A DNA stretch of 46,626 bases from a virus. The notes beneath the pieces are model-generated. The model was given only the letters and a program-made list of their open reading frames with translations, had not been told where the DNA came from and did no database searches. Numbering within the stretch: position 1 is the first letter of the stretch; each line of letters opens with the position of its first letter. The stretch lies in UHGV virus genome UHGV-0207793; one strand, 5' to 3'. The position numbers and the translations under genes were made by a program. Below are positions 8,749-9,777 of this stretch, in pieces.

Positions 8749-9048
8749 GTTTCATTGGAAGATCTGATCAATACAGGTTACAGCTATCGATCAGACGCAC
8801 CGACGCAACGCAATGATTTTAAGAGGCTGGCAGGTACTTATATAGCGTCTTCACATTCACTCCTATCACATCGGCTACCTGCTGACGAATTGCGCCGTTG
8901 TCCCGTACGGCGATTTGTCTCCTATAAATACCGCCTACACAGTGATTCCATTAAGATAAAAGACTTAAAAACATAGAGGCCGTCACGCAAAAAAAAACCA
9001 ACAACATATTGATAAATAAATGAAATTATAATAATTATTGGGTTTAAT

Positions 9049-9078
9049 TTGTAAATTTCTTTAGGTGCTGTTTATAAT
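9049..9078 (+). promoter_or_regulatory. putative sigma70 promoter for the sugar-transferase gene (-35 TTGTAA, -10 TATAAT)
   Basis: 18-bp spacer in an extremely AT-rich stretch. Confidence 0.3.
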
Positions 9079-9138
9079 TTGAAACTTACTGCAACAAAGC
9101 GTATACTCCATGCATCCACTGCGAGCAGGGTTCATGAA

Positions 9139-9729
9139 ATGCTTAAAATGAGATTTTTCGACATTTTGATAGCATCTATATTTCTGATAATTGCTTGTCC
9201 GTTTTTTATCATTCTATCTATTTTAATATGGACATCAGGATCAAAGCCATTTTTCAAGCATAAACGAGTTGGCCTCAACGGGAAGGAATTTTACTGTTTA
9301 AAATTCACATCAATGAAAGGCCTGAATGAAATAGAAGAAGCAGAACAAGAGCGAGTTATATTTGAACTGGATCATTTTGGCAAAGTCAATAATGATCCAA
9401 GAGTAACAAAAATAGGTAATTTCATCAGAAAGACAAGTATTGACGAAACCCCACAATTTTTTAATGTTCTAAAAGGAGATATGTCGCTGATTGGCCCCAG
9501 ACCTATTACTAAGGCAGAGATGAAGATTTATGGTACAAAGATAAAGTCATACTTATCAGTCAAGCCCGGAATCACTGGATTATGGCAAATATCAGGGAGA
9601 AGCAATACAACATACTCTCGCAGAGTGGCAATTGATCATTATTACGCATTAAAAAGAACAAGAAGGATGAAAATAATGATAATGATGAAAACCGTATATG
9701 TCGTTTTATTTATGAAAGGGGCTCAATAG
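9139..9729 (+). CDS. small monotopic phosphoglycosyl transferase (Bac_transf / PglC-WbaP C-terminal type, undecaprenyl-phosphate sugar-1-phosphate transferase)
   Basis: [25 protein letters not shown] membrane segment, KFTSM, [50 protein letters not shown]; very AT-rich island; the tool's TTG start at 9079 is unlikely. Confidence 0.8.
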   Translation: [196 protein letters not shown]

Positions 9730-9777
9730 CAGCCCCAACGAAAACCATCACAAATAATAAAACATCATGAATTTATA

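Follow-up and report, generated by a model that had tools for sequence, protein, structure and literature searches.

A small phosphoglycosyl transferase gene on a mobile cassette coupled to the receptor-binding protein gene of Klebsiella prophages

Why should a temperate phage carry a lone transferase for the initiating step of surface polysaccharide synthesis, directly beside the gene of its receptor-binding protein (RBP)? This question is raised by UHGV virus genome UHGV-0207793, a DNA of 46,626 nucleotides that is here called the window. The window is the genome of a temperate Klebsiella siphophage. Its nearest GenBank relatives are Klebsiella prophage-derived phages, with 90-94% identity across parts of the window. 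A small phosphoglycosyl transferase (PGT) gene lies on its plus strand (9139-9729), 1.36 kb from the phage attachment site attP. As claimed in a prediction made from the sequence alone (the original prediction), the gene is convergent with a minus-strand tailspike gene (9778-11874), from which it is separated by a spacer of 48 bp. Capsule is the main virulence factor, a vaccine target and the phage receptor of Klebsiella pneumoniae, and its type is predicted from the K-locus alone.

The PGT gene encodes a protein of 196 amino acids. The open reading frame (ORF) of the original prediction is real, but its length of 197 amino acids had included the stop codon. The start at ATG 9139 is supported by gene callers and by the family alignment; an in-frame TTG at 9079 would give 216 amino acids. 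The Pfam family Bac_transf (PF02397) matched far beyond chance, with E=3.4e-57 and 193.3 bits compared to a cut-off of 27, over profile positions 2-178 of 179. This single domain spans residues 5-190. A four-helix bundle, the PF13727 domain of unknown function (DUF) and a fused enzyme were all absent, which places the protein in the class of small monotopic PGTs (Sm-PGTs). Among PDB sequences the protein matched WbaP (E=1.4e-46, residues 281-475) and PglC (E=3e-28). In an alignment of 21 family members, with 48-84% identity, the residues P21, K55 (within KFTSM), the D102-E103 dyad and P120-R121-P122 are invariant, and both D102-E103 and P120-R121-P122 line up with WbaP's own motifs. The Asp-Glu dyad, the PRP motif and the proline of the re-entrant helix are features that define the superfamily (PMC10186338). 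All three motifs quoted in the original prediction were found in the translation of the ORF.

An AlphaFold2 model computed from the 21-sequence alignment reached a mean predicted local distance difference test score (pLDDT) of 84.7. In a Foldseek search the model matched WbaP (8t53; root-mean-square deviation 1.9 Å over 189 columns) and PglC (template modelling score 0.74-0.77), both with a probability of 1.00, and no other PDB fold was found with E<1. Residues 2-32 form a hydrophobic helix in the model that contains the invariant P21, and a re-entrant membrane helix is predicted at about residues 5-32. Judged by sequence and predicted fold, the gene encodes an Sm-PGT with intact catalytic motifs, essentially a catalytic core of the WbaP type. 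The proposal of a stand-alone small PGT was thus confirmed by the PF02397 domain, the PDB matches, the invariant motifs and the fold prediction. Substitutions in the ORF among close copies are mainly synonymous. We noticed that one copy (L163 in our numbering of loci) carries Y159D at a position that is otherwise invariant in the family; this may be an inactivated allele.

The gene is located in an AT-rich island (~8750-9950) with a GC content of 0.33-0.39, compared to 0.50-0.59 on either side, in agreement with the original prediction. Breakpoints in the loci L002 and L007 delimit a minimal PGT cassette of ~985 bp (8826-9810) that coincides with this island. It takes in non-coding DNA upstream of the PGT, the PGT ORF itself, the spacer of 48 bp and the final ~10 codons of the tailspike gene. 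L002 and seven similar places have only window positions 8818-9828 in common with the window (97.7%), next to an unrelated fibre gene. The left breakpoint is found at ~8826 in L002 and at ~8791 in other clades. The right breakpoint (~9808-9812) is the same in L002 and L007, which argues that the last ten tailspike codons travel with the cassette and persist as a remnant in L002. With a GC content of 0.34 compared to 0.52 for the locus, mapped borders and related phages that lack the PGT, the cassette has the properties of a moron, that is, of a foreign and discrete insert. A pick-up of host DNA by specialised transduction was considered and rejected, since, seen from attP, the cassette lies further in than conserved phage genes, and no polysaccharide genes are among the bacterial flanks.

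Comparison of the cassette with the tailspike gene beside it revealed very different degrees of divergence. Over window positions 8730-9777 both L007 and L008 have 100% DNA identity, but this falls to 76% and 84%, respectively, in the first 450 bp of the adjoining tailspike gene. In L165, 6 mismatches in 1081 bp of cassette compare with 321 in 2076 bp of tailspike gene. Altogether, the identity of the cassette remains at 99.4-100% while that of the neighbouring tailspike DNA falls to 76-84%. Because purifying selection cannot hold synonymous and non-coding sites identical, this pattern indicates a recent horizontal spread. The cassette is much younger than its tailspike neighbour and has spread by recombination among Klebsiella prophages with diverged alleles of one RBP type. 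The identical protein of 196 amino acids is present on 872 contigs, named just 'sugar transferase', and the index of the assembly collection has it in 1821 blocks. Assemblies with the cassette include GCA_022353865.1, GCA_041926515.1 and GCA_014103065.1. In every place that was read, the exact protein is encoded beside a tail-fibre gene and convergent with it, on several phage backbones: the lambda-like backbone of the window, a siphovirus with a GpJ of 1022-1027 amino acids (GpJ-FNIII), a Mu-like myovirus and a myovirus with a Wedge1-type baseplate. A further backbone carries a sister clade, with the PGT between tailspike and lysis cassette (at least five backbones in all). The link between PGT and tailspike that the original prediction had suspected is thereby strengthened, as the cassette accompanies RBP genes across unrelated prophage backbones.

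The RBP gene itself (9778-11874, minus strand) encodes a tail fibre or tailspike of 698 amino acids (phrog_9823 'tail fiber protein', E=2e-235; PF27114 Phage_tail_beta in precomputed annotation). Its N-terminal ~66 amino acids (11677-11874) are a backbone-specific anchor and the rest is the exchangeable receptor-binding part; the myovirus loci L003 and L007 share sequence with the window only up to ~11676. Residues 121-698 are ~80% identical to orf97 of phage 0507-KN2-1. The term 'depolymerase' used in the original prediction was not supported for the protein as a whole. Similarity to known depolymerases is confined to a module of ~100 amino acids (residues 131-236), only the N-proximal module was returned when PDB sequences were searched by profile, and the lytic relative is orf97 and not the validated KN2 depolymerase orf96. 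For the same reason, a specificity of the tailspike for KN2 (KL102) was rejected, as the match is to orf97, which has no assigned receptor. An AlphaFold2 model of the tailspike was unusable (pLDDT 40.6), built from an alignment of 20 sequences that are all at least 80% identical.

Four diverged tailspike alleles were looked up without reference to the PGT. Three of them had the PGT beside them in 12/12 of the places shown, which stand for 51 contigs with near-identical places. At the fourth allele the PGT was absent (3/3 places). It was also absent from isolated phages with the same RBP type (75-81% identity; 0507-KN2-1, FKP10, AltoGao, SopranoGao, KP591P1 and others). The linkage of PGT and RBP is frequent in prophages and not obligatory. 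In the loci with the PGT-less allele (L167-L169, 5588-8452), this allele is followed by an inverted segment with fibre genes of 89 and 554 amino acids and by a resolvase/invertase gene, probably an invertible host-range switch. The fibre genes of 89 and 701 amino acids beside the PGT in L002 may be kin of this segment.

Sister clades of the PGT (47-61% identity) were found in Klebsiella, Raoultella and Tatumella prophages, directly beside an RBP gene and convergent with it. Each of five other PGT clades is accompanied by a different RBP C-terminus, even where the RBP anchors are 79-97% identical. The window and L023, for instance, have anchors with 97% identity, PGTs with 53% identity and unrelated RBP C-termini. 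Conversely, L015 and L019 share 100% of the RBP C-terminus and the same PGT, with an anchor identity of 44%. The PGT is antisense to the late genes in every locus, and its orientation and position are conserved in the three genera. The prophage clades have a GC content of 0.31-0.39, compared to 0.49 for a chromosomal clade. In one PGT subfamily the gene is immediately followed by a gene for a PIG-L family de-N-acetylase (L015-L019 at 10592-11299; L024-L028 and L040; L150-L153 at 8597-9301). This PGT and PIG-L pair is present in prophages and also as an isolated chromosomal islet between cheZ/MCP and lysE/EAL genes, with host-like GC content and no phage genes nearby. The SGRSN/SGRSD motif reads SGRDD/SGRDN in the PIG-L-coupled subfamily.

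Which sugar might the enzyme transfer? The best NCBIfam matches of the PGT are the C-terminal domains of WbaP and EPS_sugtrans. The scores for TIGR03022, TIGR03023, PRK15204 and PRK10124 were 232.5, 191.2, 169.2 and 118.5 bits, respectively, and their cut-offs of 403, 410.75, 907 and 684 were not reached. Of the WbaP models, only positions 260-456 are covered by the protein; the WbaP and WcaJ cut-offs are missed because the N-terminal two thirds of those enzymes are absent from it. The profile search against the PglC, WbaP and WcaJ families that the original prediction had proposed therefore places the protein closest to the WbaP core, yet under every WbaP and WcaJ equivalog cut-off, and we file it by sequence as WbaP-like in its core and not as WbaP or WcaJ. 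Over the same ~190 residues the WbaP equivalog PRK15204 gave 169 bits and the WcaJ equivalog PRK10124 118.5 bits. The C-terminus of the PGT is level with that of WbaP (alignment to residue 475 of 476). WbaP is devoid of the C-terminal extension and the aromatic box of PGTs that use UDP-di-N-acetylbacillosamine (diNAcBac) (PMC10186338, PMC10942596). Likewise, the marks of diNAcBac enzymes of the PglC type (a C-terminal extension of ~14 residues, the aromatic box and the GLLLP loop) were lacking in the phage PGT, with no GLLLP visible in the sequence. Use of diNAcBac is improbable because extension and aromatic box are absent. The PGT is probably a hexose-1-phosphate transferase, with galactose-1-phosphate (Gal-1-P) favoured, as its core is nearer to the Gal-1-P enzyme WbaP than to the glucose-1-phosphate enzyme WcaJ and the diNAcBac extension is absent.

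WbaP of Salmonella enterica is a large PGT (UDP-galactose:undecaprenyl phosphate Gal-1-P transferase, PDB 8T53). It resembles the phage enzyme in catalytic fold and motifs, with 40% identity, and is inhibited by uridine monophosphate (UMP) via its regulatory DUF with a half-maximal inhibitory concentration of 4.1 µM (PMC10942596). Unlike WbaP, the phage PGT has neither the four-helix bundle nor the UMP-sensing DUF, it reads KFTSM where WbaP has KFRSM, and its gene is found on a prophage cassette and not in a polysaccharide cluster. PglC of Campylobacter, the prototype Sm-PGT (PDB 8E37/8G1N), shares the size class and the single-domain architecture, but is more distant in sequence (E=3e-28 compared to 1e-46 for WbaP). 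The nearest relatives beyond the Enterobacterales are Sm-PGTs of the ExoY type from alpha-proteobacteria, named ExoY or WbaP, with 44-50% identity. Their genes lie in chromosomal exopolysaccharide clusters and lack the RBP-linked cassette arrangement.

A lone initiating transferase had been regarded as unusual for a phage, and database searches agree with this view. No match was found in PHROGs (38,880 phage protein families), none in the BFVD viral structures at E≤1e-3, and among 50,697 GenBank phage records the best match was 45% identical, from small faecal contigs. The clearly viral homologues are those of cyanophages at 32-34% identity (Microcystis phage MaAM05 and Aphanizomenon phage Yong-DA, where the gene is annotated 'sugar transferase'); the genomic context of these Bac_transf genes differs from the RBP-linked cassette. 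With PADLOC, neither the PGT nor the two small genes next to it matched a defence system. In 5,426 complete E. coli genomes no prophage counterpart was present, with weak DNA matches to chromosomal wbaP only. Among the matches listed in a profile search of genome contigs, only distant generic PGTs with at most 50% identity were found. We came across no account of a prophage PGT beside a tail fibre in the literature, where the searchable papers exclude most subscription journals. Two Acinetobacter papers were considered as precedents and rejected; their subjects are a host PglC and prophage Wzy and acetyltransferase genes. A survey of Klebsiella prophage RBPs, which relied on PHROGs annotation and filtered short genes, mentions no such transferase (PMC13123978). 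The family may be missing from this survey because of that annotation and filter. The text of the survey allowed no mapping of the present tailspike to a K-locus. Acetyltransferase-like Klebsiella prophage genes are listed there as predictors of KL30 and KL111, in 5-30% of prophages per K-locus (PMC13123978). Since the PGT family has no PHROG, prophage surveys based on PHROGs cannot annotate it, which leaves a blind spot.

Known receptor-modifying genes of prophages provide a frame for the cassette. In P22 and in Shigella phages, the gtrABC morons of the prophage lie between attP and tailspike; they use the undecaprenyl carrier and alter the phage's own receptor polysaccharide. GtrB has a GT-A fold, makes undecaprenyl phosphate-glucose with a monophosphate link, and needs the flippase GtrA and the serotype-specific GtrC. 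In contrast, the gene described here is a lone PGT gene without partner genes; its product has an unrelated fold and is predicted to form a primer linked by pyrophosphate. Prophage O-acetyltransferases (Sf6 Oac and the Klebsiella predictors) are likewise single genes tied to particular surface polysaccharides, but they decorate the polymer once it is complete, whereas the step at which a PGT acts is the earliest membrane-committed one. In Acinetobacter baumannii, prophage Wzy or 'extra-locus' genes take over one step of Wzx/Wzy-dependent capsule synthesis and change the capsule type. The catalogue of these extra-locus genes comprises sugar-changing enzymes, Wzy and acetyltransferases, and an initiating transferase is not listed in it. 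As an enzyme, the PGT is an ordinary member of its superfamily. What is new, by the databases and papers searched, is an initiating transferase on a mobile, RBP-coupled cassette, a kin of the receptor-modifying morons.

What could such a gene do for a prophage? The PGT is antisense to the late genes and absent from lytic relatives, and this suggests transcription in the lysogen, where the gene would be transcribed on its own. A UDP-sugar would serve the enzyme as donor of a hexose-1-phosphate (most likely Gal-1-P) and undecaprenyl phosphate (Und-P) as acceptor. With the regulatory DUF absent, the phage enzyme would escape the UMP feedback that acts on the host enzyme, and with the initiating transferases of the host it would compete for UDP-sugar and for Und-P, of which the shared pool is small. 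Capsule or O-antigen, the presumed receptor of phages with this RBP type, would be reduced or altered as a result, and the PGT would serve lysogenic conversion or superinfection exclusion with an enzyme class new to these functions. Und-P is in limiting supply, and glycan pathways are in competition for it (PMC12826051). Because it is scarce and shared, a perturbation of capsule or O-antigen would be expected; the review on Und-P sequestration cited here does not mention phages. We tentatively prefer this interference model, in which a deregulated core PGT expressed in the lysogen perturbs capsule or O-antigen and thereby changes the receptor, although we hold it to be somewhat short of an even chance. 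For this model speak the intact WbaP-like core, the moron anatomy, the recent spread of the cassette and its linkage to the RBP gene, the Wza-like and Wzy_C-like genes in the slot of a relative, and the Klebsiella prophage acetyltransferases, which set a precedent for prophage genes tied to particular K-loci.

Several points weigh against such interference. Dead-end intermediates linked to undecaprenyl pyrophosphate are harmful (PMC12826051), and a constitutive drain of Und-P should therefore carry a cost; the gene is nevertheless frequent among clinical isolates. Simple competition needs no PGT variants matched to the RBP, so the covariation of PGT clade and RBP type is left over, and adjacency alone could produce it. 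The same cassette also adjoins an unrelated fibre gene in L002. The choice of Gal-1-P is a guess from similarity, as enzymes for UDP-glucose and UDP-galactose are poorly separated in network analysis (PMC11626204). Two overlapping sigma70-like promoter candidates lie upstream of the gene (9049-9107, plus strand; TTGTAA-18-TATAAT and TTGAAA-17-TATACT, each with 10/12 positions). However, the AT-rich stretch contains 8 promoter-like sites where 5.9 ± 2.5 are expected by shuffling. This number is at chance level, and the plausible own sigma70 promoter of the original prediction is no more than a candidate.

In a bolder reading, an RBP-welded, deregulated initiating transferase would be matched to the polysaccharide that the RBP recognises, and the prophage would directly control the step that first commits the cell to capsule synthesis. 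We regard this version as doubtful. If it were true, the PGT would either throttle initiation as an Und-P sink, a new kind of superinfection exclusion, or lock initiation on and so defeat the commonest escape, by loss of wbaP or wcaJ, and the capsule phenotype would hinge on a prophage gene that K-locus typing misses.

The main rival role is that of a back-up or booster, isofunctional with the host WbaP or WcaJ, which would maintain or raise the capsule even if the host gene is mutated. Host fitness would be kept, and the lysogen would be shielded from phages that need receptors under the capsule. The PGT is indeed most similar to WbaP, a capsule-type-matched initiating sugar would explain the covariation of PGT clade and RBP type, a relative has capsule genes of the export and polymerase type at the corresponding place (see below), and no toxicity problem would arise. 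In CG258, capsule and phage sensitivity are both lost through one nonsense mutation in wbaP and both regained when wbaP is supplied in trans, so that a second wbaP copy would show a clear phenotype (PMC8067426). Yet Klebsiella K-loci use only two initiating sugars, fewer than there are PGT clades (at least six, with 47-61% identity); in some of these clades the PGT has a PIG-L deacetylase as partner, which plays no part in hexose priming; and the benefit for the prophage would be indirect. We consider this role unlikely. Alternatively, the PGT could prime a different glycan, with glycosyltransferases, flippase and WaaL ligase of the host finishing a new or capped structure, for example a substitution of the lipopolysaccharide core that blocks ligation of O-antigen or masks a secondary receptor. 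The catalytic residues are strictly conserved, and the chromosomal PGT and PIG-L pair is self-contained and far from polysaccharide clusters, with the same pair in prophages. This stand-alone pair suggests that the product of the family may not need a dedicated cluster. The window cassette, however, consists of the PGT only, with no flippase, glycosyltransferase or ligase between integrase and tail genes, and priming of this kind would depend on the promiscuity of host enzymes; it appears quite unlikely.

The cassette could also be a passenger without any phenotype in the lysogen, either as silenced AT-rich DNA or kept by recombination-prone flanks and by the supply of a terminator. Adjacency alone could account for the co-transfer with the RBP module, the promoter matches do not exceed chance, a hairpin at the 3' end of the gene could end the tail operon, and one copy carries the Y159D substitution at an otherwise invariant position. 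A mere passenger would be hard to reconcile with an intact ORF that keeps every catalytic residue in clades now only 47-61% identical, with mainly synonymous substitutions among close copies, with the recent spread of the cassette to several RBP alleles and backbones, and with a position and orientation conserved in three genera, and this explanation seems to us improbable. A role in the lytic cycle, where a late drain of Und-P would halt capsule and cell-wall synthesis and aid lysis or keep progeny from sticking to capsule, is highly improbable. Depletion of Und-P is known to cause lysis (PMC12826051), and the PGT of one clade adjoins a holin-endolysin-spanin cassette. Nevertheless, the late genes that flank the PGT run antisense to it in every locus, and lytic phages with the same RBP type are without it.

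Should the PGT act on initiation in the host, a gene so widespread among prophages could shift the amount or structure of the capsule, and with it phage susceptibility, unseen by typing. This would be relevant for surveillance and for phage therapy, where loss of capsule through wbaP or wcaJ is the usual route to resistance. A new enzyme class would then join the tools with which phages remodel receptors, next to gtr cassettes, acetyltransferases and Wzy polymerases or inhibitors.

Two candidate hairpins lie in the cassette. A terminator-like GC hairpin was called by a consensus scan upstream of the PGT (8893-8912, plus strand; stem of 6 pairs, 5 of them GC, followed by ATTTGTCTCC). The hairpin GGGGCT-N7-AGCCCC lies over the stop codon of the PGT (9718-9736) and is followed by TTTCATAAAT when read on the minus strand. 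ViennaRNA folds of positions 9705-9790 gave -13.8 and -17.9 kcal/mol for the two strands, and the consensus terminator scan did not call the 9718-9736 hairpin. From its sequence, this hairpin could be a terminator of the tail operon that is supplied by the cassette. No Rfam family matched within 7700-9900. An RfaH ops/JUMPstart octamer was absent from the plus strand upstream of the PGT. Octamers with at most one mismatch from GGCGGTAG, the ops/JUMPstart core, were counted 49 times in the whole window, compared to 29.7 ± 5.3 in shuffled sequence, and no shuffle reached 49; the excess of GGCGGTAG-like octamers may reflect codon or oligonucleotide bias.

The integrase gene of the window ends at 7783. 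In the integrated prophage copies L004, L006, L008 and L009, in Klebsiella chromosomes, the match to the window extends only from 7781 rightwards, and bacterial genes (transthyretin-like, citrate synthase) lie on the left. The attP core region is therefore placed at about 7781-7850. Judged by eye from the sequence, the minus strand at about 7787-7835 resembles the 3' half of a tRNA-Arg(UCU), and ARAGORN called no complete tRNA at the attP core. The phage has a tRNA-Arg(tct) and a tRNA-Asn(gtt) of its own at 36864-37020 (minus strand), besides the core that resembles the 3' half of tRNA-Arg(UCU). Two small genes on the minus strand intervene between attP and the PGT, so that the attP-proximal position given in the original prediction holds, although the gene is not the immediate neighbour of the site. 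One encodes a UmuD-like protein of 105 amino acids (8154-8471; phrog_3469 'UmuD-like protein', E=1e-46), and this gene or a full umuDC pair adjoins the PGT slot in most loci as a conserved left neighbour. The other, of 79 amino acids (8471-8710; phrog_3893, E=1e-40), forms the conserved left flank of the slot and is kept across PGT clades, with 66% DNA identity in the L015 copy. Between the integrase (7783) and the tail genes, the stretch covered by this check, a set of the gtrABC type is absent: the UmuD-like gene, the phrog_3893 gene and the PGT gene are the only ORFs with family matches, and genes for a flippase, a glycosyltransferase or a ligase are lacking.

In Klebsiella phage vB_Kpn_RAH1 (L001, 2673-6517), the slot between integrase and tail fibre contains three minus-strand genes and not the PGT arrangement. 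They encode a Wza-like exporter (Poly_export, SLBB and Wza_C), a protein of 494 amino acids without family, and a Wzy_C protein (O-antigen ligase/polymerase family). With these genes, the phage lineage has polysaccharide cassettes of a second kind, and the Wzy_C-like gene is of the same kind as the Wzy genes of Acinetobacter prophages. The presence of Wza-like and Wzy_C genes in this slot suggests that it is a recurrent home of surface-polysaccharide genes.

In many relatives, an insert of 1.9 kb with a reverse transcriptase gene (495 amino acids) is located exactly at window position 8729/8730, upstream of the PGT cassette (L003, L004, L005, L007 and L009 at 7741-9228; L162 at 6999-8486). The protein has an RVT_1 match, and its best PADLOC matches are generic reverse transcriptase and homing-endonuclease models, which points to a group II intron-like element. 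ISL3 transposase genes were found in the same intergenic region of L154, L166 and L171, and this region is a hot spot of insertion. Elsewhere in the window, within the tail module (19089-19828, minus strand), a gene of the Fic/DOC family (136 amino acids) and a gene for a Phd/YefM-type antitoxin (109 amino acids) look like a moron of the toxin-antitoxin type.

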